A DNA stretch of 64,000 nt from Coriobacteriaceae bacterium (GTDB taxonomy: Bacteria > Actinomycetota > Coriobacteriia > Coriobacteriales > QAMH01). Below the pieces are notes generated by a model, which was given only the letters and a program-made list of their open reading frames with translations, ran no database searches and was not told where the DNA came from. Location: contig DAJPGJ010000001.1 in assembly GCA_025992705.1 (NCBI GenBank), forward strand, positions 1,553,270-1,617,269, written 5' to 3'. This document shows positions 4,290 through 60,516 of this stretch, one piece after another. The first letter of the stretch is position 1. Every line of letters begins with the position of its first letter. Made by a program: the position numbers and the translations under genes.

Positions 4290-5432
4290 TTAGCCCTCCC
4301 CTAACTTGGCGAAGCGATACGAATAATTTCCGAACCCACTGTCTGTCCCAAGGTCGGTGCGCTGCTCGGTTAGCCTGGCATCGCTCAACGCATCCAACCA
4401 GTATGGATTCTTTAACTCGTGTATCACCGCATCTTGCATATCACTGGCCTCAAGCAGCGTAACAAACATGTTGAAATTATCTTGTCCTAAAGACGCGTAC
4501 TTGCCTTTGGCGTCGATGCGATTCGCCCTCCTAACCAACTCGAAGAGCTCCTTGTTTGCATCGATAAACTTCTCGAACGCCTCTTTCAGAGTGCTCTCTA
4601 GGACAAGGAGCTGGCTCATGCAGTCTTCGAACGCAGGCCCTTCCTTTCCCAGTCCTCCGGTCGCGGAGCCAAGATCCTCGAAGCACCACGAGATAATCCG
4701 TGAATCGGCAACCGCTGAAACCGCGTCCTCGGAATACACCTCGAGCTCGTCAATCAGCCGCTTGTATACCTGGGCAAGCGATGGCGCGCATCGCTTGATG
4801 AGCCCATGCAATTCTCTGCGTTCCGCATTCCACAACGCGCGCCTAGCAAGACTCAGCATCGGCCGACTATCCCCGGAAAGCACCTCATCGATATCAGCCA
4901 GCAAGTCGAAGGTCACATTGGCCTTGCCCGCCTCAATCCGACTCAATGCCGGCTGGTCGATGCCGATGGCATCCGCAAGTTCGCGCTGGGACATGCCCAG
5001 ACCCATGCGCCGTGCTTTGATCTCCTGGCCGAGCTTCTGCCGGCGCTGCATCGTTCGATCAACGCGGCCTGACTCGTAGCTTGCCTCGTCTATTTCCTCG
5101 ACGACGAAACTATCCTGAGAGCTCTCCCCACGTCCTGCCCGCAGCAGCGTAAGCTCGCTGTATTCGCTGAGCCCATGGGCATCCAGAATCTCGCCCAGGT
5201 TTTGCCTTCCCGGAGGTGGCACGCGCTCACGTACCCAACGAAGGGCTAGGTCCGCACCGATATAGCGCTCCTCCTTCTCGACAAACGGAACGAAGAACGC
5301 CGGCACCTCGTCCGCGGAAACGTCTGAATCGATATCAATCTCGAAGCCCGTTTCATCGGCGTAACGCATGAACGCGCACGGCGTGGCCTTTCTGCGCGCG
5401 CCGTCCCGTATGGCAAAGTATTCGACCGTCAT
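4290..5432 (-). CDS. three-part protein: N-terminal domain resembling the N-subdomain of HipA-like kinases, central XRE-type HTH, C-terminal helical domain of unknown function
   Basis: The HTH is LGMSQRELADAIGIDQPALSRIEAGKANVTFDLL. The N-terminus is LRWVRERVPPPGRQNLGEILDAHGLSEYSELTLLRAGRGESSQDSF. Its ATG overlaps the stop of the upstream kinase gene (ATGA at 5429-5432). Confidence 0.6.
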   Translation of the reverse strand: MTVEYFAIRDGARRKATPCAFMRYADETGFEIDIDSDVSADEVPAFFVPFVEKEERYIGADLALRWVRERVPPPGRQNLGEILDAHGLSEYSELTLLRAGRGESSQDSFVVEEIDEASYESGRVDRTMQRRQKLGQEIKARRMGLGMSQRELADAIGIDQPALSRIEAGKANVTFDLLADIDEVLSGDSRPMLSLARRALWNAERRELHGLIKRCAPSLAQVYKRLIDELEVYSEDAVSAVADSRIISWCFEDLGSATGGLGKEGPAFEDCMSQLLVLESTLKEAFEKFIDANKELFELVRRANRIDAKGKYASLGQDNFNMFVTLLEASDMQDAVIHELKNPYWLDALSDARLTEQRTDLGTDSGFGNYSYRFAKLGEG

Positions 5433-6262
5433 TGGTCACCACACTCCTTTGCTATGCCAAGGTCTACAAGATGCTGCCAGCGTATGCTGACAATCTCCCA
5501 TATCTTTTCCCGAAGGCAATCAGGCATTGCATCTTCGAGTCCCCGGAAAAGGGATGCACCCCCATCAGAGAGCACGCTGCCTTGTAGCGCGCCTGACGGG
5601 ACAAGTTCGAGATTGCGCTCGAGCGAACGCGATCCGATGTAGTTGTTTGCGTTTCTGTCAGCCATCGGATCGAACGTACGTATCCGCTCTTCGTCGTCGT
5701 AACACGAAAACGCGAAGGAGACGCCATGGTCGAAAAGTGGCGCAAGCTCGACCGTCCCGTCACGCAAGATAACCTCGATGTTCGCGCCATGGCGATCGCG
5801 ATTGATGATGAGATAATCGAACGCCATCATCGCGTTAATCGCATCCGTCCATCCCCGTTTCGTGCAAAATTCGAGTGGCGACTCATCACCCCGGGCATTC
5901 AGGTCGATATAGGTGTCAAGGGCCTGGCGTCGCTCGTGGGGACGACGATAGTCCCTCGACTCGCTGAGCCACGTCTCGTGCGTCTGCCCCTTCACCATGA
6001 CAAGTGCATGTACGAGCTTATAGGGGATATGGGAAATGCCGAGATTGTCGAGCAACCGACTCGCGATGAGCTCGTTCACGGATTCGTGTCCGTAAATACC
6101 CTGATGTCGGTCATAGCAGGAAAGCTTATAGTAGATGTTTCCCCTACTCGATTTGGTACGCGACTTGAGGAACGTGCCACCCGTGCCACTTGTGACGGCT
6201 TTCTCGTCCCACGCGAGATGCGTGTAGTCTTGTAACTTCTTTATGACATCGCGAGTACCCAC
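5429..6262 (-). CDS. HipA-like C-terminal (kinase core) domain protein, 277 aa
   Basis: The catalytic-loop-like FDYLIINRDRHGANIEV and APLFDHGVSF are present, with glycine-rich TSGTGGTFLK near the N-terminus. A GTG start is preceded by GAGGAG. Confidence 0.65.
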   Translation of the reverse strand: MGTRDVIKKLQDYTHLAWDEKAVTSGTGGTFLKSRTKSSRGNIYYKLSCYDRHQGIYGHESVNELIASRLLDNLGISHIPYKLVHALVMVKGQTHETWLSESRDYRRPHERRQALDTYIDLNARGDESPLEFCTKRGWTDAINAMMAFDYLIINRDRHGANIEVILRDGTVELAPLFDHGVSFAFSCYDDEERIRTFDPMADRNANNYIGSRSLERNLELVPSGALQGSVLSDGGASLFRGLEDAMPDCLREKIWEIVSIRWQHLVDLGIAKECGDQ

Positions 6263-14791: not shown

Positions 14792-16373
14792 CAATAATCT
14801 GCCAAATAGGAAATAATCTGTCCGAAATTATACGAGTGCACGCCAAATTGGCAGCGAGCGGAACTTTCCCCGCTGCTTAAGTCTATAAACTCATAATGAC
14901 CCTTGAGAGGCAAATGTACGTATTCACATAATGCTCCATATAATCTGCCGACAGGCTTTATCTTTGCCTTAAGACGACCGATGGATTTCGTAGGCGAAAT
15001 TTTCTCCGCTTCTTCCAAATCCTTCGCCTTGCAGGCGTTATACGCCCATGCGATTTGCTCTAGCATCAACCTACTCATAGCATGAGCCTCGATCATATGG
15101 CCTTCCCTGTATAACATTGCGGCGACATAATAAGTATTCTTCGCCCGAGTTAAGGCCGCATCTGAATATACCTCTCCCGCGTTCGGCTCAGCTTCAGGAT
15201 GCATCCGCCGCATCGTGTCTTCCATGTGCTGCTTTCCCGCAAAGTACATTCTCTGAAACGCCAGATGTATATCTGGAATGTCAGGCTCACTACTAGAAAC
15301 AAGATGCCTCAAAGCGTAGTCAAATGGTGTGCCCAAATTATGTGCAGCAATCGCCGCCTGAACATATTCGACCAGCTTTTTCGGTGCATTTCTTGATATA
15401 TGGACAGCATGTGCCGAATAGCCAATCTGCGTGTAGTCTTCAAGGAGATCTCGACTTGCTTCAGCACGCATTTGTTCAAACGTCTCGTATGGCACCCCTT
15501 CTGCAAACGATGCGCTAATCCCCTGGTACCCCGTGTTATTTTCCGCATCATCCTCATCGCTTGTCATCATATCGATTGGATCATCCTCAGCATTGCTGTA
15601 TCTGTATAGGAGCTTGCGAGATGAGGTCAAACGGTAACCGTTATCCATTAACATTTGTATCGAATCTTTACCTACGGACCTCGGGTCATATTTGGTGTTC
15701 TGTTCCTGGGAAGCGTAATACCCATCAGCAGCATCAGCCAGGTAGCAGCAAAGTTCGGGCATCACACCAATATATTGATAAACAGCATGCGGGAGCTTAT
15801 CAAAGAAGTCTTGTAGATTAGCAGCTTCGTAAGCTTCTCGCGATAACTCGAGTTTATGGATGTAAAGCACATCAACATACATCCCAGAAGGACTTTCGAT
15901 AAGCCCTTCGCCCTCTAAATCAGTGGCTACTTCGCATAAATCCGCATTGCAATCATCGCATTCCATAACGATATTGCGCTTATCCCTATAGGCCTGTGCG
16001 CCGAATATGAATGCACCGTCAAGATGACCAACCAAGTCCACCTTCGCATCATCACCGTAAAGGGAGATGACGGTATCCCCATCTTCTTGTTCAAGCGCGA
16101 AGTTCATTGTCAGCCATGTGATATGCGGAAACTCTTCTTCAAATAACCTAGTACTTTCGTACTCCTTCCCATTTTCAAACGGAACGGAAATAAGCAAGTC
16201 CTTGAAATTTAGCTCTGCTGACATGATGACTATCCTTAAATACGTTTAGCGATAATAAATGGCTTGTCTCGATGTTTACATTTAACTCGCGGCGGACAGA
16301 GACCGAAGAAAATATCCGTCAATCCGCAACTCTTCGAATCTCTCGAAACCACTCTGCTGCAGGAAACGAGCCG

Positions 16374-21895: not shown

Positions 21896-22023
21896 GGGTC
21901 TCCTGAAAATGAAATGGCGGGGAAAAAGTCCCCGCCCTTGGGTGGACCAGGGCCTTTCGGCCAGCCCAGAATATGACTAGTTTATAGCACGTTTTCATAA
22001 CCCCGTCCATAGGCGCGCGCTTC

Positions 22024-30039: not shown

Positions 30040-31485
30040 ATGACTGTTAAAGACATCGACCTCGTTTCGACCGAGGAACTGGCAGAGATGGACGCCCAGA
30101 CCTCATACACGTCCCCGATCTTCGGCAGCTATGCCTCGGACGTCGAGATGCCCGAGACCAAGCTCAACAAGATGCCCATCGAACCGCGTATCGCAAGCGA
30201 GATGATTCGCGAGTACATCGGCACCGAGGGTAACGCCCACCAGAACCTCTGCACCTTCGTCCAGACCTACATGGAGCCCGAGGCTGCGGAGCTGATGAAG
30301 GACACGCTCGAGAAGAACGCCATTGACAAGGACGAATACCCGATGACGGCCGACCTCGAGAACCGCTGCGTGAAGATCATCCAGGACCTGTGGCACGCCG
30401 ATCAGGACGAGCAGCCCATGGGCACCTCGACCGTCGGCTCGTCCGAGGCCTGCATGCTGGGTGGCCTGGCCGCTCTGTTCCGCTGGAAGGCCCTGGCCAA
30501 GAAGGCTGGCATCGACATCTACAGCGATCATCGCCCCAACCTGGTCATCACCTCCGGCTACCAGATCTGCTGGGAGAAGTTCTGCCGCTACTGGGACATC
30601 GAGATGCGTCTGGTCCCCATGGACGCCGAGCACCTGTACATGACCCCGGAGTCGTGCATGCCCTTCGTCGATGACCACACCATCTGCGTCGTCGCCCTGC
30701 TCGGCATCACCTACACCGGCTGCTACGATGACGTCAAGGGCATCGACGCCGCTCTGACCGAGTACAACAAGACGGCCAAGGTGCCTGTCCGCATCCACGT
30801 CGACGGCGCGTCCGGCGCCATGGTCGCCCCGTTCATCGAGCCCGAGCTCGAGTGGGACTTCCGCCTTCCCAACGTCTGGTCCATCTCGACCTCCGGCCAT
30901 AAGTACGGCCTGGTCTACCCGGGCATCGGCTGGGTCATGTGGCGTTCGAAGGAGGCCTTGCCCGAGGACCTGATCTTCTGGGTCAGCTACCTCGGCGGCG
31001 AGGAGGCCACCATGGCCATCAACTTCAGCCGCTCGGCATCGCAGATCATCGGCCAGTACTACGTCTTCATGCGCAATGGCTTCGAGGGCTACAAGGAGAT
31101 CCAGAAGCGCACCCTGGACGTGGCACGTCACCTGGTCGACGAGATCAAGAAGATCGGCATCTTCGTCATGTACGAGGAGGCCTCCGAGGTCCCCATCCTG
31201 TGCTGGAGCCTTGACCCCAAGGCCGGCAAGAAGTGGACGCTGTACGACCTGGACGACCGTCTGCGCATGCATGGCTGGCAGATTCCGGCTTACCCGCTGC
31301 CCGAGAACATGCAGGACGTCACGTGCCAGCGCATCGTGGCTCGCGCGGACCTCTCGATGACCATGGCCGACAAGTTCATCAAGGACATGAAGGCAGAGAT
31401 TAAGAACCTCGACAACGCGAAGGTGATCGGATCGGCCGATACCAATATCGCCCCCAAGAAGTCGTTCGACCACAGCGGCAGGTAA
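30040..31485 (+). CDS. gadB: glutamate decarboxylase (PLP-dependent)
   Basis: NLCTFVQTYMEPEA, DEYPMTADLENRCV and the PLP-lysine motif SGHKYGLVYPGIGWVMWR are present. Confidence 0.9.
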   Translation: MTVKDIDLVSTEELAEMDAQTSYTSPIFGSYASDVEMPETKLNKMPIEPRIASEMIREYIGTEGNAHQNLCTFVQTYMEPEAAELMKDTLEKNAIDKDEYPMTADLENRCVKIIQDLWHADQDEQPMGTSTVGSSEACMLGGLAALFRWKALAKKAGIDIYSDHRPNLVITSGYQICWEKFCRYWDIEMRLVPMDAEHLYMTPESCMPFVDDHTICVVALLGITYTGCYDDVKGIDAALTEYNKTAKVPVRIHVDGASGAMVAPFIEPELEWDFRLPNVWSISTSGHKYGLVYPGIGWVMWRSKEALPEDLIFWVSYLGGEEATMAINFSRSASQIIGQYYVFMRNGFEGYKEIQKRTLDVARHLVDEIKKIGIFVMYEEASEVPILCWSLDPKAGKKWTLYDLDDRLRMHGWQIPAYPLPENMQDVTCQRIVARADLSMTMADKFIKDMKAEIKNLDNAKVIGSADTNIAPKKSFDHSGR

Positions 31486-31617: not shown

Positions 31618-31659
31618 GCGGGACAAATGTGGGACAAGTGGACAGGTCATTTGTCCCGC
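31618..31659. repeat. hairpin GCGGGACAAATG[18 nt]CATTTGTCCCGC, related to one arm of the palindrome at 46165..46239
   Basis: The loop-plus-stem segment TGGGACAAGTGGACAGGTCATTTGTCCC matches 46168..46195 with one mismatch. Confidence 0.7.
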
Positions 31660-31708
31660 TTGCTGCCGGTAACTGCAGCAAATGAGACAACGTCTCTGAG
31701 TAACTGTC

Positions 31709-34700
31709 TCAGCGGGCGGCGTCGACGGCGAGGCGGATGCGGTTCTCGCGGTTGAGCGCCGAGGACTCGGGATCGTAGTCAATGACCGTGATGCGCATGT
31801 TGGCAAAGCGCTCGTGCAGCTCACGCAGGGCCCCGCGGGCGCTCACGTGCCCCTTGAGGCAGCCAAAGCTCAGAAGGTAGATGACGTCGTGGATGCCCTG
31901 CTCGGCGAATGCGGCGAGTTGGTCGAGGTAGCGCACGTCATCGCCCTCGAGAAGCGCGGGGTCGGGCATGACGGGCTCGCATCCGAGCGAATCGAGCACC
32001 TCGACGATGCAATCGTTCATGAAGGGCTCGAACACGATGAGCGGGTTGCCGACGATGCCGATGCGGGGGCGAGGATTCGAGTGAGATTTCTCGACTGCGC
32101 CGCCTTCGGCGGCTTCGCTCGAAATGACAGAGGGAGCCATGCCTTCGGCGGCTCCGCTCGAAATGACAGTGTCCCATGGCACCCAGACGTACTCGGGCGT
32201 GCGACCGCAGGCGCGCTCGACGATACGGGGCACGGCATCGGTCAGGCAGGTCTCGCAGACCTGCGGAAGCTCGACGCGCGTGATACCGGAATCGTCGCGC
32301 AGCATGCGGATGACGCGCGCCGCCATCGCGTTGGCGGTGAAGCACACGTCCTTCACGCAGCTACGCCGCGCGCACTCAAGGTCGTTGGCATCGAGAGGTC
32401 GTTTGGCGAGATCGGCGAGCAGCGAAGCGGATGAGCCGGCCCCGCTGTCATCTCGACCGGAGCGGCCGCCTGGCCGCGCAACGGAGAGATCTCGGGGCGG
32501 AGATTTCTCGACTCCGCTGCCTTCGGCAGCTTCGCTCGAAATGACAGGGGGTGCCGCTTCGTCCGCTTCGGCGGTTCCTCGCATGGCGATGGCCGCGGCA
32601 AGCGTGCGCAGGCGGATGCGGATATGCGCGAGATCGCTGATGTCGTCGACCTTGAGCGTCGTGCACGGCTTGCCCGCCGCGTCGAGCACGTCAGCTGCCT
32701 CCTCGACCGACACCGCCTCGAACCCGCAGCCAAACGACTGCAGAAACACGGCGTCGAGCTGCGGATGGCCGGCGACGAAGCGCGCGATCCCGACGAGCCG
32801 CTTGGCAGGCACCCATGGATACGCGCCATCGAGGTGCGCCTTCGCACGTGATGGGTCGGCCGCCGCGAGACCCGCCACGCCCAGCACCGCAAACCCCAAC
32901 CGGGCGAGCTCGCGGTCAATGCCGTGCAGTAGCGCCTCGTCCATGTGATACGGACGTCCGGCGAGCACGATGCCGTGACGCGACGGATCCTCGGCAAGCC
33001 AGCGCAGGGCACCCTCGGACCGCTCCGCGAGCTCGGCGTTGACCTCCTCCTGGCGCTGCATCGCCATGGAAAACGCCCGGTCGAACTCGCCACGCGTGAT
33101 GGCGGGCACCTCGTCGCCGGCGAGCTCGTTCATGGCGTCGAACAGCCGCTCCATCGAGGCCTCGTCGCGAACGAATCGCGCGGGACGGTAGTTGGCGAGC
33201 TCGGGCGACACGATGGGCGCGAGACCGGCACCGCTTCGGGCCGTCCCGACGTTGGCGGCAAGCGCGCTGGCGTATCCGGTCTGGACCGGGCAATGGTAGT
33301 TGCGCGTGAAGCGCGGCATGAAGACGGCATCGCAGCCGCCCTCGCACAGGCTGAAGTAGCGCACGTGCGACGTCTTGGCCGGATAGCACGCGCTCTCGGA
33401 AGGCACCGTCTCCCACGCCTCGCTCATGCGGTCGGCCTCGCAACCGGGTCGGGGCAGCATGACGCTGAAGCCGAGCTCGACGAGCAACGTGCGCCAGAAG
33501 GGTCGGTACGCGTAGAGCGCCATCGAGTCCATGAGGCCGATGCGCCGCGAACCGCGACTCCCCCGCTGCTCAATGTCGCCAAACGACGCGATCAGGCGCT
33601 GCTCGTCGGCAATGACGTTGGGAGGTGGGACTGGGACAGGGGGAGCCACCTCGTTCGCCTCTCCCCATCGGCGCCGCGGCTCGTCGAGGCCGCGTTCGCA
33701 CTTGTTGTCGCTGACGAAGCAACGCGTCCTCTCGGCATCGAAGCTCACAATCGACAGCTCGCATGCGTTCGCGCAACCCGTGCACGCGACCTTCTCGCGA
33801 CGAATCTCGAGACACCGAAGCTCGTCGAGGCTGATGAGACCGCTTTTCGCCGTCGTATCCGCACCCACCGCGTCGAGCGCGAAAAGCGCGCAGCCAATCG
33901 CTCCCATGAGGTGCGCCTGCGCGGGGCGCACGGCCTCGACGCCGCACAGCAGCTCGAAGGCACGCAGCACGGCGTCCGAGCGGAAGGTTCCGCCCTGGAC
34001 GACCACGCGCTGCCCGGGCTGCGGGATGCGATCGTCACCGATGATGCGATGCAGGGCGTTCTTGACGACGGAGTACGCGACGCCGGCGGCGATGTCCTCG
34101 ATCGGCGCACCGGTTTTCTGCGCGTGCTTGACCCGCGAGTTCATGAAGACCGTACACTTGGTGCCCAGGTCGATGGGATGGCGCGCGAGCAGGGCATCAT
34201 CGGCAAACTGCCACGGCGTCGTCTTGAGCGCGGCGGCCGTGCCCTCGATGAACGCGCCGCATCCGCTCGAGCACGCCTCGTTGAGCGCCGCATCGGTCAC
34301 CATGCCGTGTCGCACCCACAGTGCCTTCATGTCCTGTCCGCCTATGTCGAGCAGGAAGTCGAGGTCATCGCATAGGTGCCGCGCCGAGCGAAGGTGCGCG
34401 GCCGTCTCGACCACCCCCATGTCGACCCCGAATGCGGCGCGCAGCAGCTCCTCGCCGTAACCGGTCGCGCATGCGCGGGCAATCCACGTGCTCGACTTGG
34501 CATGGGGCAGGTACGAAGGCGGCTCGATCTTGCGATACAGCTCGTCGAGCGCCTCGCGCAGCGTCTCGATAAGGTCACCGCGAATGGGCTCGTAGACGCT
34601 GTAGACGATCTGCGCGTCGGCGTTGAGCGCGACGAGCTTGAGGGTCGTCGAACCCGCATCGATGCCGAGGAACAAGGGGCCCGTCGCTTCGTAAATGCCC

Positions 34701-35644
34701 TGACGCTCGAACTCGGCTTGCGCATGCCGCGCGCGAAACGCCGCGAGTTCGTCGGCGTCCTCGAACAGCGGCGGCAGAAATGCGAGGTCGCTCTTGAGCT
34801 CGCCCATGTCGGCGATGCGCCGCTCGAGCTCTGACGTGTTCATGACGACGGGAGCACACCCCAGCGAACGCGTGTCATCCGAGAGCAGCGCTGCGCCCGT
34901 GACGGTGAACAGGTGCGCGTTCTTGGGCTTGACGCCCTCATGCGCCGAAAGCCCGAGCGTCCGACGGAACGCGTGGACGAGATACGGCATGTGCTCGAGC
35001 GGACCGCCCAGGAAGACGACGTTGCCGCGGATGGGGCGCCCGCAGGCCAGCCCCGACAGCGTCTGGCGCACGACGGCGTCGAAAACGCTCGCGGCGATGT
35101 CGGCCTTGCTCGCGCCGGCGTTGAGCAGCGGGCGCACGTCGGTCTGCGCGAACACGGCACAGCGCGAGGCGATCGGATAGCTGCGGCTCGCGCCAAAGGC
35201 CAGCTGGCTCATCTGGCTGCTGCGCATGTCGAGCATGTAGGCGATGGTGTCGATGAATCCGCCGGTTCCACCCGCGCACGTCGCGTTCATGCGCTGCTCG
35301 GGGCGCTCGTCGAGGTAGATGATCTTCGCGTCCTCACCGCCGAGCTCGATGACGACATCGGCGTCTGGCTCGAGGCCGCGCACGGCATGGGTCGTGGCGA
35401 CGACCTCCTGTACGAAGGGAATGCCGAGGACGCGCGCGACCTCGATTGCGGCCGATCCGGTCATGGCGATCGACGCGTCGACGGGGCCGTGGCGCCAGTT
35501 GAAGTCGTGAATTGCCTCGCCCAGCGTGCGCGCGATGTTGGCGCGATGGCGCATGTAGGTGTCGTAGACGACGGCGCCCGACTCATCGAGCACGACGAGC
35601 TTGAGCGTCTTGGAACCGGCGTCGATGCCGATGCGATACGTCAT
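31709..35644 (-). CDS. giant fusion: two BadF/BadG/BcrA/BcrD-type ATPase (activase) domains plus a 2-hydroxyacyl-CoA-dehydratase-related domain
   Basis: There are two copies of the actin-fold start (YRIGIDAGSKTLK; LFLGIDAGSTTLK) and a long C-terminal dehydratase-like region. The start was chosen at MTYRIGID with a GAGG RBS. The ORF is open to 35677. Confidence 0.8.
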   Translation of the reverse strand: MTYRIGIDAGSKTLKLVVLDESGAVVYDTYMRHRANIARTLGEAIHDFNWRHGPVDASIAMTGSAAIEVARVLGIPFVQEVVATTHAVRGLEPDADVVIELGGEDAKIIYLDERPEQRMNATCAGGTGGFIDTIAYMLDMRSSQMSQLAFGASRSYPIASRCAVFAQTDVRPLLNAGASKADIAASVFDAVVRQTLSGLACGRPIRGNVVFLGGPLEHMPYLVHAFRRTLGLSAHEGVKPKNAHLFTVTGAALLSDDTRSLGCAPVVMNTSELERRIADMGELKSDLAFLPPLFEDADELAAFRARHAQAEFERQGIYEATGPLFLGIDAGSTTLKLVALNADAQIVYSVYEPIRGDLIETLREALDELYRKIEPPSYLPHAKSSTWIARACATGYGEELLRAAFGVDMGVVETAAHLRSARHLCDDLDFLLDIGGQDMKALWVRHGMVTDAALNEACSSGCGAFIEGTAAALKTTPWQFADDALLARHPIDLGTKCTVFMNSRVKHAQKTGAPIEDIAAGVAYSVVKNALHRIIGDDRIPQPGQRVVVQGGTFRSDAVLRAFELLCGVEAVRPAQAHLMGAIGCALFALDAVGADTTAKSGLISLDELRCLEIRREKVACTGCANACELSIVSFDAERTRCFVSDNKCERGLDEPRRRWGEANEVAPPVPVPPPNVIADEQRLIASFGDIEQRGSRGSRRIGLMDSMALYAYRPFWRTLLVELGFSVMLPRPGCEADRMSEAWETVPSESACYPAKTSHVRYFSLCEGGCDAVFMPRFTRNYHCPVQTGYASALAANVGTARSGAGLAPIVSPELANYRPARFVRDEASMERLFDAMNELAGDEVPAITRGEFDRAFSMAMQRQEEVNAELAERSEGALRWLAEDPSRHGIVLAGRPYHMDEALLHGIDRELARLGFAVLGVAGLAAADPSRAKAHLDGAYPWVPAKRLVGIARFVAGHPQLDAVFLQSFGCGFEAVSVEEAADVLDAAGKPCTTLKVDDISDLAHIRIRLRTLAAAIAMRGTAEADEAAPPVISSEAAEGSGVEKSPPRDLSVARPGGRSGRDDSGAGSSASLLADLAKRPLDANDLECARRSCVKDVCFTANAMAARVIRMLRDDSGITRVELPQVCETCLTDAVPRIVERACGRTPEYVWVPWDTVISSGAAEGMAPSVISSEAAEGGAVEKSHSNPRPRIGIVGNPLIVFEPFMNDCIVEVLDSLGCEPVMPDPALLEGDDVRYLDQLAAFAEQGIHDVIYLLSFGCLKGHVSARGALRELHERFANMRITVIDYDPESSALNRENRIRLAVDAAR
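32083..32130. repeat. 48-nt palindromic repeat, copy 1 (inside the CDS, in frame)
   Basis: The sequence is GAGATTTCTCGACTGCGCCGCCTTCGGCGGCTTCGCTCGAAATGACAG. On the minus strand it encodes VISSEAAEGGAVEKS. Confidence 0.9.
32141..32169. repeat. half copy of the 48-nt repeat (inside the CDS, in frame)
   Basis: The sequence is GCCTTCGGCGGCTCCGCTCGAAATGACAG. It encodes VISSGAAEG. Confidence 0.85.
32500..32547. repeat. 48-nt palindromic repeat, copy 3 (inside the CDS, in frame)
   Basis: The sequence is GAGATTTCTCGACTCCGCTGCCTTCGGCAGCTTCGCTCGAAATGACAG. It encodes VISSEAAEGSGVEKS. Confidence 0.9.
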
Positions 35645-35666
35645 GGGCGACCTCGGGGCGACGAAT

Positions 35667-35703
35667 GAATGAGACAAATCCAGCCCGGCGGGATTTGTCT
35701 CAT
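35667..35703. repeat. 14-bp-stem hairpin AATGAGACAAATCC[agcccggcg]GGATTTGTCTCATT just upstream of the activase-fusion gene
   Basis: The inverted repeat is perfect. The loop nearly matches that of the 27923 and 35779 hairpins. Confidence 0.8.
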
Positions 35704-36854: not shown

Positions 36855-36902
36855 GAGATTTCTCGACTGCGCAGCCTTCGGCTGCTTCGCTCGAAATGAC
36901 AG
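36855..36902. repeat. 48-nt palindromic repeat, copy 4 (intergenic)
   Basis: The sequence is GAGATTTCTCGACTGCGCAGCCTTCGGCTGCTTCGCTCGAAATGACAG. Confidence 0.9.
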
Positions 36903-37002
36903 GAGAGATGTGTGCACATTTGTCACACGACGTTTACAAAAGCCGCGGGGCACCCGTGTTAGAATCACGGCCAATACGCTCGCGATGGAAGGGACGTTCA
37001 TC

Positions 37003-39478: not shown

Positions 39479-39531
39479 GCGCGAGAGGGCCGTCGCGCCA
39501 GGGATTCAAACCGACGCGCGTAGCCATCAGC

Positions 39532-39753
39532 CCGCAAAACGTGGCGCAACAGGCGATGAATGCCCAAAACTGCGCCCTCGTGGCTGCCCGGTGCCAAGTC
39601 CTGCGGTCACATGACAGCAAAACGCGGCGCAACGCCGGGGCGCGCAGCCACCCAACCGCAAAACGTGGCACGGCAGGTGATAGCTGCCCAAAATTGTGTC
39701 CCCGTGGCCGTCCGGTGCCAAGTCCTGCGGTCACATGACAGCAAAACGCGGCG
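39532..39753. repeat. tandem direct repeat, about 1.8 units of 124 bp, carrying four copies of GCAAAACG(T/C)GGC
   Basis: CCGGTGCCAAGTCCTGCGGTCACATGACAGCAAAACGCGGCG recurs exactly at 39588 and 39712. Confidence 0.85.
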
Positions 39754-39948
39754 AGATGCCAATGAGGTGGTGACTCTGAGTTGCTGCCTCGCTTTTCATC
39801 CTCGGGGCATGATGACCATGCACACTGTTTACGTTAGATTGAGTGCGCGTTGCGTATGTGCCTAATCCCATCTGCATTGTTAACGTAATCGTTACATTCG
39901 TACGCTAGCATTTACGCACTTGTCTATAGCTCCGGGAGGAAGAGCCTT

Positions 39949-43673: not shown

Positions 43674-43716
43674 AGGCTCGGAGCTCTCAAATTACGATTG
43701 CGCGCGCAAAAACCGC

Positions 43717-43847
43717 GGAAGTCTAGGATGCGAATACGCCACGGACGAGCCGCACGCGCAAAAACCACGGAAGTCTAGGATTTGAGCACGGGAATCCTAG
43801 ACTTCCGTCATATATGCGCTCGGAGCTCCCGCGAATCCTAGACTTTC
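43717..43847. repeat. cluster of four copies (two direct, two inverted) of GGAAGTCTAGGAT, including a 13-bp-stem hairpin at 43769..43806
   Basis: The copies lie at 43717, 43769, 43794 (inverted) and 43835 (inverted, one mismatch). Confidence 0.85.
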
Positions 43848-43904
43848 GCGAAAAGTGCGCATGGCAGGGGCGCGATGACGCGTCGGCGGGTACAATATAC
43901 AGCG

Positions 43905-44060
43905 AATTGGCTTACGGGCCGCCTCCGATAGGCGGTGCCTCGTAGAGGCCTCGGGGAATGCGGGTGCAAATCCCGCGCTATACCAGTAACCGTAAGGCGC
44001 CGCATGCGTGCGGCCGAAGTCGGACTACCGAGCCATGACCGAAAGCCCTGGATGAAAGAG
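43905..44060 (+). ncRNA. cobalamin (B12) riboswitch
   Basis: GGGAAUGCGGGUGCAAAUCCCGCGCU...CCGUAAGG and the B12-box-like GAAGUCGGACUACCGAGCC are present. A TACAAT box sits at 43891. B12-uptake-type genes lie downstream. The boundaries are approximate. Confidence 0.65.
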
Positions 44061-44067
44061 GTCTATC

Positions 44068-44517
44068 ATGAAACGTCTTTTTGCATGCATTGCCGCCTGC
44101 GCGCTCTTCGCCTCGCTGGCACTTGCCGGTTGTGGCTCGAATGCCCCGGCATCGTCGAGCGCGGCGAGCACGCAAGGCTCCTCCGCCGCCGCGGCGGCGA
44201 GCCAACAGGCTGACCAGCCCGGTGAGCTCATCGAGACCAAGGCGACGATTACGGATGCCGACGGAAACACCACGAGCTACACCGTCCAGATACCGGCAGC
44301 CGATGCGACGGCGCTTGCCGTGCTCGAGGCAACCGATGCCGAAGTCGCCACCGAGAACAGCCAGTACGGCACGTACATCACCGCCATCAACGGCATCGCG
44401 GCCGAGGGCAATTCGGGTTGGGTCTACACGGTCAACGGCGAGCAGGTCATGGAAGCCGTCGACGTCTGTCCCGTGGCAGCCGGTGATACCGTGGAGTTCT
44501 CCTTCATCACGATGTAG
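44068..44517 (+). CDS. DUF4430 (transcobalamin-like) lipoprotein
   Basis: A lipobox LAGC is present, and the C-terminus reads YGTYITAINGIAAEGNSGWVYTVNGE. Confidence 0.7.
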   Translation: MKRLFACIAACALFASLALAGCGSNAPASSSAASTQGSSAAAAASQQADQPGELIETKATITDADGNTTSYTVQIPAADATALAVLEATDAEVATENSQYGTYITAINGIAAEGNSGWVYTVNGEQVMEAVDVCPVAAGDTVEFSFITM

Positions 44518-44526
44518 CGCACGCGC

Positions 44527-45435
44527 ATGCGCCCCGATGCCTTCTCGACACATCATCCTGCGGTGACGCTCACCTTCTTCGTGGGCGTCATCGTGTTGTG
44601 CGTGCTCGTGCAGCAACCCGTCGTGCAAGCGGCGGGCCTCATGGGTGCGGTGCTCTACTACCTGTGTCTGCGCGGGCGCGATGCCTGGCGCCTGCTTGCG
44701 GCGATGGCATTGGCGCTCGTCGTGCTTGCCACGATCAACCCCCTCTTCAACACGCTTGGCGACACCGCGCTCTTCACGTACCTGGGCGCACGCCCCTACA
44801 CGCTCGAGGCGCTCGCCTACGGTGCGTCGACCGCGACCATGTTCGTGAGCGTCATGCTGTGGTTTGCCTGCTATGCGCAGGTGATGAGCACGGACAAGTT
44901 CACGTACCTCTTTGGCCGCCGGGCACCAGCGCTCACGCTCGTGCTGACGATGACGCTACGCCTCGTGCCGAGTTACGGACGCAAGGCCCGACAGATTTCG
45001 ACAGCGCGGCGCTGCGTCGGCCTGTCGATGACGCAGGGCAGCGTACGCGAACGTGCGCGGGATGGGGCTTCGCTGCTCTCGGCGCTCACGAGCTGGGCGC
45101 TCGAGGGTGCCGTGACCACGGCCGACTCGATGCGTTCGCGCGGTTACGGCGCGCGGACTAGCGGCGACTCATCGACTCCGGGGCGCTACCTGCAATGCCG
45201 CTTCCGCATGCGCGATGCGCTGTTGCTCGCCCTCATGGTCGCGTGCGTTATCGTCACCTGCATCGCCCTCGCGAGCGGCGCGCTTGCCGTGAGCTACGTG
45301 CCCGCCATCGACATCCCCACGCTCTCGCCGCTTGGCATCGGCGCGCTCGTGGCGTGTACGGTGCTCGTGCTCGTGCCATCTGCCATCGATGCGAAGGAGG
45401 CGATTGCATGGCGCTCTTCGCTCTCGAACATCTGA
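44527..45435 (+). CDS. ECF transporter transmembrane (T) component, CbiQ/EcfT family
   Basis: The protein is multi-TM, and LTMTLRLVPSYGRKARQISTARRCVG is the coupling-helix region. Confidence 0.8.
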   Translation: MRPDAFSTHHPAVTLTFFVGVIVLCVLVQQPVVQAAGLMGAVLYYLCLRGRDAWRLLAAMALALVVLATINPLFNTLGDTALFTYLGARPYTLEALAYGASTATMFVSVMLWFACYAQVMSTDKFTYLFGRRAPALTLVLTMTLRLVPSYGRKARQISTARRCVGLSMTQGSVRERARDGASLLSALTSWALEGAVTTADSMRSRGYGARTSGDSSTPGRYLQCRFRMRDALLLALMVACVIVTCIALASGALAVSYVPAIDIPTLSPLGIGALVACTVLVLVPSAIDAKEAIAWRSSLSNI

Positions 45436-47132
45436 GCTTCAGCTATCCCGATGCCACGGTGCCCGCACTCGACGAGCTTAGCCTCGAGGTCGAGCGCGGC
45501 GAGTACCTCTGCGTCTGCGGCAAGAGCGGTTGCGGCAAGACGACGTTCCTGCGCCAGCTCAAGAGCGTGCTCGCCCCCTTCGGACAGCGTTCGGGCGCCA
45601 TCTTGCTCGATGGCGTTTCCCTGGACGAGGTGCCGCTTGAGACCCAGGCCCGGCGCATCGGCTTCGTCATGCAGGACCCGGATGCGCAGATCGTGACCGA
45701 CAAGGTATGGCACGAGCTCGCCTTCGGACTGGAAAGCATCGGTTGCCCTTCGCCGGTGCTCCGCCTGCGCGTGGCGGAGATGGCAAGCTACTTCGGCATA
45801 TCCGACTGGTTCGACCGCGACGTCTCCGAGCTCTCCGGCGGGCAGAAGCAACTCCTCAACCTGGCCGGCGTGATGGCCATGCAGCCTGACGTGCTCGTCT
45901 GCGACGAGCCGACAAGCCAGCTCGACCCCATCGCGACGGCGAGCTTCCTCGACACGCTGCGTCGACTCAATCGCGAGCTCGGCGTGACCGTCATCATCAG
46001 CGAACATCGCCTCGAGGATGTCTTCGCGCAGGCCGACCGCGCGCTCGTTCTCGACGAGGGGCGCATGATGGCTTATGGCACGCCGCGCGAAGTGGCGGCC
46101 CGCCTATACGCGACGGACGATGACATGACGCGTGCGTTGCCTTCGCCAGTGCGCGTGTTCTATGGGGTGGGACAAGGGGACAGGTCATTTGTCCCACTGG
46201 AATCCAGTGGGACAAATGACCTGTCCCCTTGTCCCACCCGATGCCCGCTCACGGTACGCGAGGGACGCACGTGGCTTGTCGAACGCGTGCTCGCCAAACC
46301 GCCCGCACGCGTGAACATCCCCGACAGCAACGACGACATGGACGCGCGCAAACCCGTCGTGGAACTCCGCGACCTGTGGTTTCGTTACGAGCGACAGGCA
46401 CCCGACGTACTGCGCGGCCTGGACCTGCGCGTGCCGCAAGCCACGCTCTTCGCGCTCGTGGGCGGCAACGGCAGCGGCAAGTCGACACTGCTCAGGTGCC
46501 TTTGCGGCGTACAGCGTCCCTATCGCGGCAAGATGCGCGTGCTCGGCCACAAGCGAGGGTCGGACAAAGGCACCGGGCGGCTCCGGGAGGGCGTCGCCAT
46601 GCTGCCCCAGGACCCGGCCAACCTCTTCTCGAAGAACAGCGTGCACGAGGAGCTCGCCGAGATGCTCGCAGCTCAGGGGCTTGATGCGAGCGAAAACGCA
46701 CGGCGCTGCGCGGCCATGGCGCACGATTGCGGCATCGAAAGGCTACTCGATGCACACCCCCGCGATCTGTCCGGCGGCGAGCAGCAACGCGTGGCACTCG
46801 CCAAGGTGCTCCTGACCGAGCCGCGTCTGCTCCTGCTCGACGAGCCGACCAAGGGCATCGACGCCTTCTTCAAGCACGAGCTCGCCGTATTGCTGCATCG
46901 CCTAACCGAGCGCGATGTCTCCATCATCATGGTCTCGCACGACATCGAGTTCTGCGCGCGTTATGCGGACTTCGTCGGCCTGCTTTTCGACGGCAGCGTC
47001 GTGACCACGGCAACCCCGCGCCGTCTCTTCTCGGACAGCGGGTTTTACACGACGGCTGCCAATCGCATGAGCCGCAGCGTGTTTGCCGGCGCCATCACGG
47101 ACGAGGACGTGATCGAGCTGTGTCTGAGCTAA
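45408..47132 (+). CDS. duplicated ECF/ABC ATPase (EcfA1-EcfA2 fusion)
   Basis: There are two Walker A motifs (GKSGCGKTT; GGNGSGKST), two signatures (LSGGQKQ; LSGGEQQ) and two Walker B motifs. The RBS is GAAGGAGG. Confidence 0.85.
   Translation: MALFALEHLSFSYPDATVPALDELSLEVERGEYLCVCGKSGCGKTTFLRQLKSVLAPFGQRSGAILLDGVSLDEVPLETQARRIGFVMQDPDAQIVTDKVWHELAFGLESIGCPSPVLRLRVAEMASYFGISDWFDRDVSELSGGQKQLLNLAGVMAMQPDVLVCDEPTSQLDPIATASFLDTLRRLNRELGVTVIISEHRLEDVFAQADRALVLDEGRMMAYGTPREVAARLYATDDDMTRALPSPVRVFYGVGQGDRSFVPLESSGTNDLSPCPTRCPLTVREGRTWLVERVLAKPPARVNIPDSNDDMDARKPVVELRDLWFRYERQAPDVLRGLDLRVPQATLFALVGGNGSGKSTLLRCLCGVQRPYRGKMRVLGHKRGSDKGTGRLREGVAMLPQDPANLFSKNSVHEELAEMLAAQGLDASENARRCAAMAHDCGIERLLDAHPRDLSGGEQQRVALAKVLLTEPRLLLLDEPTKGIDAFFKHELAVLLHRLTERDVSIIMVSHDIEFCARYADFVGLLFDGSVVTTATPRRLFSDSGFYTTAANRMSRSVFAGAITDEDVIELCLS
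46165..46239. repeat. 75-bp perfect palindrome (two 36-bp arms with a 3-nt centre) inside the ATPase linker, in frame
   Basis: The sequence is GGGTGGGACAAGGGGACAGGTCATTTGTCCCACTGG-AAT-CCAGTGGGACAAATGACCTGTCCCCTTGTCCCACCC. It encodes GVGQGDRSFVPLESSGTNDLSPCPT. Confidence 0.95.
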
Positions 47133-47170: not shown

Positions 47171-47872
47171 ATGGCCCTCGCATGGACCCTGTCGCTTGCG
47201 TGCGCAGTCGCGAGCGTCGTTATCAGCGCGCTCGTAGGCGGCAAGGCGTACGTAATCGCGAGCGTCATCGTGGTGCTTTGCACCATCGTCCCCTTCTTCG
47301 CGATCTTCGAGGCGCGGCGCCCCCAGGCGCGCGAGCTCGTCATGCTCGCGGTCATGTGTGCCCTGGCGGTGGCGGCACGCGCGGCCTTCATCTGGCTGCC
47401 GGGCTTCAAGCCAATGGCGGCCATCATCATGATCGCGGGTATCGCCTTCGGGCCGTCATCAGGCTTTCTGGTCGGTTCGCTTGCGGCGCTCACGAGCAAC
47501 TTCATCTTCGGTCAAGGCCCCTGGACGCCCTGGCAGATGCTCGCCTTCGGGCTCTGCGGCCTCGTCTTCGGAGCGCTCGCCCAACGCGGCCTGATACGCC
47601 GCGAGAAGCTGAGCGTGCGGGCCCGCGTGGGGGTGGCCGCAAGCGGCGCCGTCTTCGTCGTGCTCGTCGCGGGGCCCATCCTCGACACGAGCTCACTTTT
47701 CTTCATGCTCTCGCGCATCACGCCCGAAGCCATCATCGCCGTCTATCTCGCCGGCTTCCCGATGAACTGCATCCAGGCGGCCGCGACATTCGTCACGCTG
47801 TTGCTCGTGGCAAACCCCCTGCTCGACAAGCTCACCCGCGTGCAACGCAAGTACGGTATGCTCGTGCGCTGA
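47171..47872 (+). CDS. ECF transporter substrate-specific (S) component, candidate cobalamin-specific
   Basis: It is a 6-TM small integral membrane protein directly after the ATPase. An alternative GTG start lies at 47120. Confidence 0.6.
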   Translation: MALAWTLSLACAVASVVISALVGGKAYVIASVIVVLCTIVPFFAIFEARRPQARELVMLAVMCALAVAARAAFIWLPGFKPMAAIIMIAGIAFGPSSGFLVGSLAALTSNFIFGQGPWTPWQMLAFGLCGLVFGALAQRGLIRREKLSVRARVGVAASGAVFVVLVAGPILDTSSLFFMLSRITPEAIIAVYLAGFPMNCIQAAATFVTLLLVANPLLDKLTRVQRKYGMLVR

Positions 47873-57886: not shown

Positions 57887-58014
57887 GCTTTCTCCCCTCC
57901 CTCTCCATATCTTCCGCGGGGTATAGGCACTGAGGCCGTAAGGGGCGCACGCCGGGGAGGTGACAGGGGGACGGGGGTTCTGTCACGTCCATGGACGTGA
58001 CAGAACCCCCGGGC

Positions 58015-58092
58015 GGGTTCAGGCGATCATTGCACCTTCCGCCAACACTTCCTGGGTTCAGGCGATCATTGCACCTTCCGCCAACACTTCCT
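58015..58092. repeat. perfect 39-bp tandem duplication spanning the transposase stop codon
   Basis: GGGTTCAGGCGATCATTGCACCTTCCGCCAACACTTCCT occurs twice in tandem. Confidence 0.95.
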
Positions 58093-59248
58093 GCATAGCC
58101 TCGGAAGGGAACTTCCAGCCCAGGACCTTCCTCGGACGGTTGTTGAGCAGCCACCGCACCTTGCCCACCTCTTCGTCCGACACCTCCGTGAAGTCAGTCT
58201 CTTTGGGGAAGAACTCCCTGATCAGCCCGTTCACATTCTCATTGGTGGGCCGCTGCCAAGGAGAGTGCGGATCGCAGAAATACACCTCGAAGCCAGAGGA
58301 GAGCTTGAACCTGTCCACGCATGCCATCTCCGACCCCTGATCCCAGGTGAGCGTGCGCCTGAGCTCCTCGGGGATCCCCTCGGCCATCTGCGCCATGCGC
58401 TCTGCGACCGTGTCCGCGTCATGGCAGGTCAGCCTCGACATCAAAAGGAAGCGCGACCTTCTCTCCACGAGGGTTATGAGGCAGCTCGACAGGTCGCTTC
58501 CAATGATCAGGTCCCCTTCCCAATGCCCGGGGATGGAGCGGTCACCCGCCTCCGGGGGCCTCTTGGATATATGCGCATCCTTAAGCCAGGGCCTGTTCTT
58601 TGCGGGGAGCTTGGATGCCGGTTTGCGACCGCGGCGCTTGGTGCGCAAGGCGTACTCGACGCCGAGCTCATGGCGCAGCGTCCCGTAGCCTTGTACATAA
58701 AGGGACCGGTATATCGTCTCGTGGCTTATGCGCATCCCCTCGTCATCCGGGAAGTCTTCTTCGATCCGCTTGGAGACCTGCTCGGGCGACCATCTGCTGG
58801 CAAGCATCTGCAGCACATAGGCCCTAAGGGGGCCTCGGGCATCGAGCTTGCGGGGTTTTGGCCTTTTCGCCTTCTTCCTCGCATCAAGCTGGGCGTGCCT
58901 CGGATCGTAGGGTCCTTGCACCCGAGAAAGCTCGCGAGCGACGGTCGTCCTGCTGATGTTCATTTTATCGGCAATCTCTTGGTTGGTGCGCCCGACATCG
59001 AGAAGGGCCGCGATAAAGCAGCGGTCCTCGTATGTCAGGCGCTGCTTGGGCGATGTTCTTGCGCTCGGGGTCGGGCAGCTCGCGGCGTCCATTGTAAGCA
59101 CCATCCGATCCGGAGGGCGGTCCATTCGGCTCCACTTGAAAACGGCACCACGCCCGATTCCGGTCCGCCTTGCGCACTCCCTGATCGAATCACCCGCGCG
59201 AAGCCTCTCTTTGACCGCCGTCCAATCATCGATAGAGTATTTAGCCAT
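58058..59248 (-). CDS. IS30-family DDE transposase
   Basis: An N-terminal HTH (SIRECARRTGIGRGAVFKW; NQEIADKMNISRTTVAREL) and a DDE core (TLTWDQGSEMA...FCDPHSPWQRPTNENVNGLIREFFPK) are present. The start was chosen at MAKYS. Confidence 0.85.
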   Translation of the reverse strand: MAKYSIDDWTAVKERLRAGDSIRECARRTGIGRGAVFKWSRMDRPPDRMVLTMDAASCPTPSARTSPKQRLTYEDRCFIAALLDVGRTNQEIADKMNISRTTVARELSRVQGPYDPRHAQLDARKKAKRPKPRKLDARGPLRAYVLQMLASRWSPEQVSKRIEEDFPDDEGMRISHETIYRSLYVQGYGTLRHELGVEYALRTKRRGRKPASKLPAKNRPWLKDAHISKRPPEAGDRSIPGHWEGDLIIGSDLSSCLITLVERRSRFLLMSRLTCHDADTVAERMAQMAEGIPEELRRTLTWDQGSEMACVDRFKLSSGFEVYFCDPHSPWQRPTNENVNGLIREFFPKETDFTEVSDEEVGKVRWLLNNRPRKVLGWKFPSEAMQEVLAEGAMIA

Positions 59249-60516
59249 TGCACCACATCCTTTCCATGCGTGCAATGACCGCTAGAATCCGCCCCGTCCC
59301 CCTGTCACCTCCCCGTCCCCATGTCACGAATCCTCTCAGTTCATGCTGTTAAATCTTGCTCAATCATACAATTCAATGGGTATGATTATACATGTGAGCA
59401 GGTATAACGATATTTTCGGTGCATAGAAAACAGGACAAATTATGCGCGTAGGCACGCCGCGGAAGCATTGCCGAGCGTGCGCGTTCTTCGGCTGATATTC
59501 CTCTGACCGGCATGAACGGATGCAGCATTTGCCATTTGGGTAGGATTTTCCCTGATAAACCACAATCAATGGAGGAGGAAAGTGCTCTTGCGCAAATGGT
59601 GGCCTACTGGGGCCAAGATAATCCGTATTATGGACAGCCGATGGCAAGATACTAGGTACCTCATTGCATGAAAATGCATGTGACCTTGGAATATGACGCT
59701 CTGAGCAGGTGCTTTTAAAGGCTTTTGAATAGGTAATATGATGCCTGTATATTCCTAACATAGACAATTGCTGGGGAGGATGAATTCTCCTCCCTCCCCA
59801 TAGTGGCCAGGTGGGGAGAATAAGCCTGTCTTTGACCGCATTTCAGACAGATTAAGGACAAGCGCGACCAAGAAGAAATGTGATTCTACCCACGAAACGA
59901 GTAGTTTGGCTAGATTTTATGTCTAATTATAGAATCCAGGGACTGTCCCCTTCTTTCCGCTCGGGGTGCAAAATCACTCCCTGGATCCCCAAAAGGCCAT
60001 TGGTTGCCCATGAGTCTTATGCGGCGAAAAGAGAGTTTTGAAGGTCTTGAAGGCAGTTGCTAGCACCTTGAGAAGGCATCTGGTTGCTATACACGTTGTC
60101 CTGGGATGATATACGCTAGCAGACGAGCATCACCGCCCTCCTGGAGCCGGTTTCTCGTCTGCGCGAAGGGGTCTCCCCCCACCTTCTTTTGTACGAGGAT
60201 TTCGCGCCAAAAACACGCCGAACAACCCTCGATCCTGCATGACGACGATCTTGCGCGCGACTGCGTTGAGGCTATGTTGAGTTGTGCAGAGAACCCGTTA
60301 AATCCTCGTCACAACCTGCATGCAAGTCGCCGTCATGCAGAGTGCATCAAAATGCCTGTATTAGACACTTTTATTGCATCTGGGTAGGATAATACACTTT
60401 TTCAAGCAAAAATCAAGTGGAATTTGTATGGTATTCAAGCCCATATTATGATTTGTGGGGCAAGAGCGTATTTCTGCTCTATCATCCTGCCCAAGCGAGG
60501 AAAAGCCTGACAGGAA

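Follow-up and report, generated by a model that had tools for sequence, protein, structure and literature searches.

Why does a nearly perfect 75-nt palindrome lie in frame inside a transporter gene? The question is raised by a 64,000-nt stretch of DNA from a Coriobacteriaceae bacterium, herein termed the window, in which the palindrome occupies positions 46165 to 46239 within the gene for a fused ATPase of an energy-coupling factor (ECF) transporter. The window was compared with orthologous and unrelated loci, which are numbered with the prefix L. Based on these comparisons, the palindrome is very probably a REPIN-like doublet, in which two inverted 29-nt hairpin units of the repetitive extragenic palindrome (REP) type surround an 11-nt centre. 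The doublet stands in frame in a linker of the ATPase that varies in length and is predicted to be disordered. The features on which this interpretation is built are as follows.

45408..47132, + strand: 574-aa fused EcfA-EcfA' ATPase carrying two ABC_tran domains; residues 253-277 are the insert
46165..46239, no strand: 75-nt palindrome, in frame in the ATPase linker (by self-complementarity and RNA fold)
46168..46196, + strand: left REP-type unit TGGGACAAGGGGACAGGTCATTTGTCCCA, 'GG' subtype, identical to units in L008, L020, L048, L053 and others
46197..46207, no strand: 11-nt centre CTGGAATCCAG, itself palindromic (by unit comparison)
46208..46236, - strand: right REP-type unit, an inverted copy of the left unit (by unit comparison)

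The palindrome and the dispersed 29-nt unit

The palindrome (GGGTGGGACAAGGGGACAGGTCATTTGTCCCACTGGAATCCAGTGGGACAAATGACCTGTCCCCTTGTCCCACCC) is self-complementary at 74 of its 75 positions. Its two 37-nt arms are perfectly complementary, a single unpaired A at 46202 forms the centre, and the symmetry ends at 46164/46240 (G/G). The initial annotation had described the same feature as a 75-bp palindrome with 36-bp arms around an AAT centre, a count that is one base short for each arm. The 25 codons it reported (GVGQGDRSFVPLESSGTNDLSPCPT) were also found, in a corrected register: they run from 46164 to 46238 and are one base off the palindrome. As RNA, the palindrome folds into one uninterrupted hairpin of -78.5 kcal/mol, compared with -28.7 +/- 3.2 kcal/mol for 200 dinucleotide shuffles (z = -15.6). 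No Rfam 15 family matched the palindrome at its gathering score, and the only sub-threshold hits were eukaryotic microRNA hairpin models, which are generic for long hairpins. An intrinsic terminator, which would be a G+C-rich hairpin with a T run behind it, was considered and rejected, since the ATPase copy is followed by CCCGATGCCCGC and is located within an open reading frame (ORF).

The palindrome is not an assembly artefact. Palindromes are able to mislead assemblers, and two irregular alleles could be taken as signs of such an error: L004 has a 96-bp deletion that ends at the centre, and L130 has a local cluster of transversions. However, three independent assemblies made from different samples contain the full doublet (the window, L001 from ENA ERZ27301722, and L130 from ENA ERZ28617362). 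Its right half is present with consistent junctions in a fourth assembly (L004, NCBI GCA_902475535.1), and the ATPase protein cluster P0001 has 41 member sequences. An artefact is therefore extremely improbable.

The mobile core of the palindrome is 69 nt long (29 + 11 + 29). Local flanking sequence contributes the outer GGG/CCC that brings the total to 75 nt, and the empty orthologue also has the left GGGGT. The 29-nt unit has the form TGGGACAA-NN-GGACAGGTCATTTGTCCCA, which is conserved in all genuine copies, with NN mostly AT or GG. It is a short imperfect palindrome that folds into a stem of 11-12 bp closed by a loop of 5-7 nt (-16.0 kcal/mol and z = -4.4 for the AT subtype). The unit starts with TGGGACAA and ends with TTGTCCCA. 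Neither the GTAG nor the CGTC tag is found at either end, and the unit is therefore outside the GTAG and CGTC REP superfamilies.

A genome-wide search for the sequence, as proposed in the initial annotation, revealed a dispersed family with dozens of copies. The 18-mer GGACAGGTCATTTGTCCC was scanned over one genome per species (GTDB), and at least 120 stretches were found. Among the matches listed, most come from at least six metagenome-assembled genomes (MAGs) of uncultured human-gut Coriobacteriia (MGYG-HGUT-02074, MGYG-HGUT-04247, HGM04055, SRR16279944_bin.60, UMGS650, and others). A second group among the listed matches is formed by Firmicutes MAGs (Syntrophomonadaceae, Tissierellaceae, Clostridia, Pelosinus, and three Bacillaceae). 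Single 18-mer matches in other phyla, without the extended unit, look like chance. The 216 kb sampled from the reference MAG of the window's species contain at least 34 units, 12 of the 34 in head-to-head doublets, and the 180 kb sampled from a sister MAG contain 48 units, 18 of them in such doublets. The doublets of these two samples measure 68, 69 or 82 nt. Most units are solo and lie just downstream of genes, many directly after the stop codon. A handful of copies pass the coding test on both flanks.

Twenty head-to-head doublets were identified, with lengths of 68, 69, 70, 82 or 98 nt, and the window copy is the 69-nt form. The 68-nt doublets share a 10-nt centre, CGAACCCCAG, which is found in either orientation. 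This usual centre is asymmetric, whereas the window centre is palindromic and has its nearest relative in the L019 centre CTGGAACCCAG.

In the sediment Syntrophomonadaceae MAGs (L048, L064, L078, L096, and L111), the same 29-mer is abundant in the GG subtype only, and the copies sometimes stand in short tandem arrays with periods of 39-75 nt. A phage vector was also considered; one match was found in 2.9 million viral contigs, which is negligible.

Presence and absence of the unit were then compared between orthologous sites. A solo unit is present in L004 and L001, while the same site is empty in the window (...GACAGGAGA|GATGTGTG..., 36904) and in L002. This was the one clear empty site in a flank-to-flank search of all loci, and most orthologous sites are filled in all sampled species. 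The L019 doublet corresponds to a solo unit at the orthologous L029 site. At a further site (L051 / L023), the GGGACA family of the 29-nt unit is present in one species and a doublet of a second type, TGAGACA, in the other. These data show that the unit family is insertion-polymorphic in this genus of uncultured gut Coriobacteriia. The earlier suggestion of a mobile, inserted element agrees with this dispersal and polymorphism, and with the absence of the ATPase element from L002 and L003.

A second copy of the unit is present in the window, next to a member of the sister family:

31618..31659, + strand: variant of the solo unit, with a 12-bp stem GCGGGACAAATG/CATTTGTCCCGC enclosing an extra GGGACAA motif (-20.8 kcal/mol, z = -4.4)
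31683..31711, + strand: sister REP family TGAGACA..TGTCTCA, one solo copy that starts 24 nt downstream of the unit at 31618

At 31630..31657, the 28-mer TGGGACAAGGGGACAGGTCATTTGTCCC is found again with a single mismatch. No further copy with up to three mismatches was found in the 64-kb window, and 0 are expected by chance. The copy lies between a glutamate decarboxylase gene (30040..31485, +) and a convergent 1322-aa ORF (31709..35677, -). Both the 28-nt match and its own 12-bp-stem hairpin in this convergent intergenic region are real, as the initial annotation had stated. The label of a half-element is not appropriate, since units commonly occur in this solo form, here enlarged by an additional 11-nt GGGACAA motif. 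The reference MAG of the species (L060) has a canonical solo unit at the orthologous site. Relative to L060, the window copy carries the 11-nt GGGACAA insertion and a paired exchange, T>C with A>G, that leaves the stem intact; no other compensatory pair was seen.

A different repeat family of 48-56 nt (GAGATTTCTCGACTGCGC..CTTCGG..GCTTCGCTCGAAATGACAG) was observed in the window (32083-32169, 32500-32555, and 36855-36910), in L004 (1308-1470), and in L033 (4540-4620). Two sets are in frame in the 1322-aa BcrAD_BadFG-type ORF (31709-35677), where they are read as VISSEAAEG..VEKS peptides. These repeats often abut GGGACA units, and their copy number at the 36.9-kb site varies among strains.

Orthologous ATPase loci and the origin of the symmetry

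The insert lies in frame in the linker between the two ABC ATPase domains, which is the position originally assigned to it. Between the nearly invariant motifs RVFYGV and CPLTVREGR, the linker ranges from 7 to about 70 residues without conserved sequence in 22 orthologues. An AlphaFold2 model was built on the orthologue alignment, with a mean predicted local distance difference test score (pLDDT) of 78.7. Residues 251-286, which contain the insert, have a pLDDT below 50 and no secondary structure, and they stand between two confidently folded domains. The linker is hypervariable and, according to this model, is predicted to be disordered.

The ATPase loci are listed below. Identities are nucleotide identities to the window over about 5 kb of upstream synteny; the figure for L130 is that of the ATPase gene alone.

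L130, ENA ERZ28617362: 97.6% (gene), palindrome present with four changes
L004, NCBI GCA_902475535.1, MGYG-HGUT-02074, same species: 95.9%, right arm only
L002, ENA ERZ27244876: 93.5%, palindrome absent
L001, ENA ERZ27301722: 91.6%, palindrome present, centre T

Between L001 and L002, the identity is 90.3%. A comparison with orthologues that lack the insert, which had also been proposed initially, showed that L002 and L003 carry an unrelated linker of 17 aa, QGMPGGATAGTGDGAPP, instead of the element. No remnant of the element was found in the L002 linker, where the best local alignment was no better than 105/1000 shuffles. The left junction is common to all loci (...TTCTATGGGGT|), and the right flanks differ. 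With the element and linker, the ATPase lengths by lineage are 574, 579, and 567 aa.

The arms of L001 are both as in the window, and the T in place of A at its centre replaces Glu with Asp. The centre base is T in L001 and L004 and A in the window, and this is the sole palindrome difference to either. The A/T swap fits an inversion of the perfect palindrome, and a point mutation explains it equally well. In L130, the four arm changes are all transversions, and none is compensatory. Over the corresponding window positions 46196-46249, L130 shows five differences within 54 nt, all of them transversions, while differences elsewhere in the gene are mostly transitions. This cluster may represent hairpin-related sequencing errors or real decay. 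L004 (10690-10710, corresponding to window 46106-46201) has lost 96 bp in frame. The deletion takes away the left arm and the 23 codons before it, including the conserved helix at the C-terminal end of the first ABC domain (...ALPSPVRVFYGV). The deletion is either palindrome-provoked or an assembly error; in the former case, the hairpin itself would have caused the L004 allele.

These alleles bear on whether the host selects the palindrome. A selected function could be an RNA processing or pausing site that uncouples the expression of the ATPase from that of the S component, or a peptide that tunes the linker. Such a function would fit the identity of the arms between the window and L001, given an identity of about 89% in the gene around them. 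In a polycistronic mRNA, an RNA stem of 36 bp and -78.5 kcal/mol would also be expected to affect translation or stability, and RNase III cleavage is a possible effect as well. However, L130 has four non-compensatory arm changes at 97.6% gene identity, L004 lacks one arm, and the nearest sister species lacks the element. The same sequence stands at more than 100 unrelated sites, and the peptide falls in a region modelled as disordered. A host-selected function is therefore unlikely. The strong structural selection suggested initially is not supported, in view of the L130 changes and the missing arm of the L004 assembly.

The flanks of the family provide further information on the symmetry. Pairing of the flanks extends the stem by a mean of 1.5 bp in solo units and 3.2 bp in doublets, compared with 0.34 bp in controls, and some extensions reach 11-17 bp. 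At least three extra flank pairs are found in 50% of doublets, 17% of solo units, and 1.7% of controls. The stem-lengthening flanks are copy-specific inverted repeats and often contain further GGGAC motifs (for example in L051 at 5240-5310, L081, L027, and L112 at 763-830). Such copy-specific stems suggest insertion into pre-existing hairpins or hairpin-templated copying.

These flanks raise the possibility of copy-back. In this scenario, only a solo unit was inserted or recruited, and the second arm, the centre, and the 3 flanking bp were then made in place by fold-back or template-switch synthesis. The doublet would never have transposed as a doublet. Copy-back addresses the formation of the doublet and does not conflict with the REP nature of the unit. 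In the ATPase gene, complementarity continues for 3 bp past the units into the flank, where the left GGGGT is host sequence in the empty orthologue, and the stems of the family are extended by their flanks far beyond chance (50% and 17% versus 1.7%). Doublet arms share private variants (TGTGACAA is found in both L019 arms, and the orthologous L029 site is solo), and the window centre is palindromic, unlike the usual asymmetric CGAACCCCAG. On the other hand, the same asymmetric 10-nt centre is found at unrelated loci in both orientations, which fits doublets that move as units. The three extra base pairs could be chance, and L001 has the same doublet without the CCC flank. Copy-back is thus a possible origin of the doublet, although it is less likely than not. 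The near-perfect symmetry is read as the youth of a transposed doublet or as copy-back at a solo unit, and not as host selection.

RAYT genes associated with the unit

REP units are linked with REP-associated tyrosine transposases (RAYTs), and the initial annotation had suggested a search for a RAYT or IS200-type gene. The search was positive in Firmicutes, where units flank RayT genes, and negative in the Coriobacteriia examined, where no such gene with this flank was found. In the Syntrophomonadaceae locus L048, units at 5016 (+) and 5960 (-) bracket a gene at 5150..5905. Inverted units bracket the same 252-aa gene in L064, L095 (Clostridia), and L132, a metagenome contig that was retrieved by protein and not by repeat, and one unit adjoins the gene in L090 (Pelosinus). 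The 252-aa product is IS200-like and matches Pfam Y1_Tnp (PF01797, E = 1e-15), and its relatives are named 'REP element-mobilizing transposase RayT' by JGI. Placement of inverted units on both sides of one Y1 transposase gene is what defines the REP/RAYT arrangement (PMC3337134, PMC3733652).

A related gene, P0200, is labelled 'Actinobacteria' and lies on a contig with 45% G+C, between copies of a variant repeat, GGGACAGGTACCTTGTCCC. Profile scanning of metagenome contigs recovered at least 80 more distant RAYT loci; the 80 listed have 29-55% G+C. Most of them have other flanks, and few have flanks of the GGGACAGGT..TTGTCCC type. The unit therefore tracks one RAYT subclade. None of the 80 listed loci was Coriobacteriia-like. 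A tblastn search with three RAYTs against the window and all sampled loci returned nothing new, and no RAYT was found in the window or in the sampled loci of its species.

The proposed mechanism relies on analogy with known enzymes. In E. coli TnpA-REP and in IS200/IS605 enzymes, a single-stranded hairpin is recognised, cut, and joined by a Y1 HUH transposase. By analogy, the GGGACA unit may be cut and joined as a single-stranded DNA hairpin by such an enzyme, a RAYT supplied in trans. A doublet, or a solo unit that was later copied back on itself, would then have landed in the linker between the nucleotide-binding domains, where the element would be translated as about 23-25 extra linker residues.

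The window also contains an IS30-family transposase ORF (58058-59275, -) within an element at 57953-59315, and the units could instead be degenerate terminal inverted repeats (TIRs) of a DDE insertion sequence such as this one. The palindrome would then be a miniature inverted-repeat transposable element (MITE) moved by the transposase of that insertion sequence. The IS30-family element at 57953..59315 has perfect 24-bp ends, CGGGGAGGTGACAGGGGGACGGGG, which have the 11-mer GACAGGGGGAC in common with unit variants, and a manual alignment of these ends with an L019-type unit matches at 20/29 positions. However, no target-site duplications were found, and the flanks are inverted rather than direct. 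Most copies are solo and are not TIR pairs. In at least four genomes, the transposase genes that the exact unit brackets are of the Y1 and not the DDE type, and a single IS30 copy was found in all sequence examined. An origin from an insertion sequence is therefore very unlikely, and the resemblance of the IS30 ends to the unit may be due to chance, insertion into a REP, or a shared origin.

Several observations weigh against the interpretation of the palindrome as a REPIN-like doublet. No RAYT flanked by GGGACA units was found in the Coriobacteriia sequence covered, which comprises about 10% of the host genome and the matches listed in the scans. Coriobacteriia of the genus do carry a RAYT homologue, apparently single-copy, at a conserved locus (comF-like gene, RayT, nhaC, IF-2B). 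This enzyme is 58-99% identical between species and 35% identical to the Firmicutes enzyme, and it is bracketed by the other palindrome, TGAGACA..TGTCTCA (L126, L127, L129, and L033), with species-specific inner stems. The tags that mark the two described REP superfamilies, GTAG and CGTC, are also missing from the unit. At the ATPase, divergence of the linker leaves no clean empty site for the insertion. The window species and the more distant L001 (91.6%) have the element and the closer L002 (93.5%) does not, and therefore a loss or two gains are required. Finally, the element is 74/75 identical between the window and L001, where the gene is about 89% identical (binomial P ~0.002). This identity is unexplained by a purely neutral old insertion. 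The element may have been gained independently at a preferred GGGGT site, converted by other copies, or kept under some constraint.

The missing enzyme raises the question of how the unit spreads in its gut hosts. The GGGACA and TGAGACA families look related. In the L077 doublet TGAGACAGATGGACAGGGCATTTGTCTCA..., a TGAGACA-family head and tail are combined with GGGACA-unit architecture (hybrid TGAGACA/GGACAGG), which hints at cross-recognition by the resident RAYT. The GGGACA population of gut Coriobacteriia could thus be an 'orphan' without a cognate enzyme, which crossed phyla and was spread by a heterologous resident RAYT or by hairpin-templated copy-back. This proposal is doubtful at present. 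If true, hairpin-templated copy-back would also account for the copy-specific stem extensions, and the case would contradict a strictly vertical, one-to-one co-inheritance of RAYT and REPIN. The presence of an identical 29-mer in two phyla, with no cognate enzyme found in the Coriobacteriia host sequence examined, is the point of wider reach in this analysis.

In-frame copies, related systems, and the surroundings of the gene

The 29-nt unit is stop-free in 5/6 frames, and doublets are stop-free in 4/6. With so few stops in the unit, and with a core length (69 nt) that is divisible by three, the ATPase gene stays open. Further in-frame copies were found in other genes of the genus. A MocR-type regulator (L012) has a doublet between its GntR domain and its aminotransferase domain, another is in frame in an 810-aa LRR_5 protein in two species (L120, L091), and a solo unit together with other repeats is in frame in the comF-like gene of L033. 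The initial proposal that the genome tolerates palindromic elements inside ORFs is borne out by these doublets. Intragenic REPs have been reported before; more than half are dimers or grouped repeats, and they encode 20-30 aa (PMC3733652). In-frame REP doublets are thus already described, while the repeat family and the host lineage are new. These copies are natural cases of linkers that accommodate about 25 additional residues. For gene annotation, the units are expected to inflate or split ORFs in the genus.

REP/REPIN and RAYT (TnpA-REP) systems are known from Escherichia coli and Pseudomonas (PMC3116915, PMC3337134, PMC5581495). The family described herein is similar to them in its short imperfect-palindrome unit, its tens of dispersed copies, mostly just 3' of genes, and its frequent inverted doublets that form one long hairpin. 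In Firmicutes, inverted units bracket a single Y1 transposase gene, as in these systems, and in Coriobacteriia the RAYT keeps a conserved syntenic position, which would be expected if a single-copy RAYT is passed on vertically. In contrast, the hosts are Gram-positive (Coriobacteriia and Firmicutes), the GTAG/CGTC tag is absent, the same 29-mer is found in two phyla, and the only RAYT seen in the Coriobacteriia host is flanked by the sister family. RAYT Group 1 has been reported in Clostridia (PMC5581495).

The in-frame copies can also be compared with intragenic REPs and the Rickettsia palindromic elements (RPEs) (PMC3733652). Like them, the unit is in frame in functional genes, often as a dimer that adds 20-30 residues, and most of its frames are open. 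The host is unrelated, and the sequence family is unrelated to the intragenic REPs and presumably to the RPEs (PMC3733652). The targets also differ: inter-domain linkers and a leucine-rich repeat protein are involved here, while the published account emphasises DNA-repair genes (PMC3733652).

Two further classes of small repeats share some properties with the family. In enterobacterial bacterial interspersed mosaic elements (BIMEs), intergenic hot spots combine different small palindromic units, as at the L051/L023 site. The frequent abutment of GGGACA units and the 48-56-nt repeat is a similar arrangement. The composition and host are different, and binding of integration host factor, gyrase, or Pol I is a feature of the BIME side. 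With MITEs (Correia/NEMIS, RUP, and ERIC), the family shares small non-autonomous repeats with inverted ends in or near genes. The TIRs of MITEs match a DDE insertion sequence, and direct target duplications are made. Neither DDE-matching TIRs nor direct target duplications were seen for the GGGACA unit.

Literature searches returned no report of the GGGACA unit sequence or of REPs in Coriobacteriia, and the REP-type family of uncultured human-gut Coriobacteriia is undescribed. An odd perfect 75-bp palindrome in a transporter gene can thus be explained by an ordinary process, and the family is usable for strain typing.

The ATPase is the third gene of its operon, which has the order DUF4430 lipoprotein, EcfT (CbiQ), ATPase, and S component, with an AdoCbl-II (adenosylcobalamin) riboswitch directly upstream:

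43940..44038, + strand: AdoCbl-II riboswitch (RF01689, 44.3 bits versus a gathering score of 36.5)
44068..44517, + strand: DUF4430 lipoprotein, operon gene upstream of the ATPase
44527..45435, + strand: EcfT/CbiQ, operon gene upstream of the ATPase
47171..47872, + strand: ECF S-component gene; orthologous 233-aa products carry PF07155/PF12822

Because the AdoCbl-II riboswitch precedes the operon, the ECF module is B12-regulated, and the initial description of an essential-type transporter does not apply. Inverted and direct repeats of the AATCCTAGACTTCCG type form a cluster at 43701-43863, shortly upstream of the riboswitch.

Other observations were made elsewhere in the window. A 124-nt tandem duplication (81% identical) is located at 39511-39758, upstream of hydrogenase-like genes. 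A full-length match to the Rfam DUF3800-XI RNA motif was found at 21921-21968 (-), with 61.8 bits versus a gathering score of 37.8. At 13456-14796, 31-nt inverted repeats (94% complementary) bracket a 395-aa ORF (13570-14757, +) with an N-terminal zinc-ribbon motif, and this region is probably another insertion sequence that interrupts a larger ORF.

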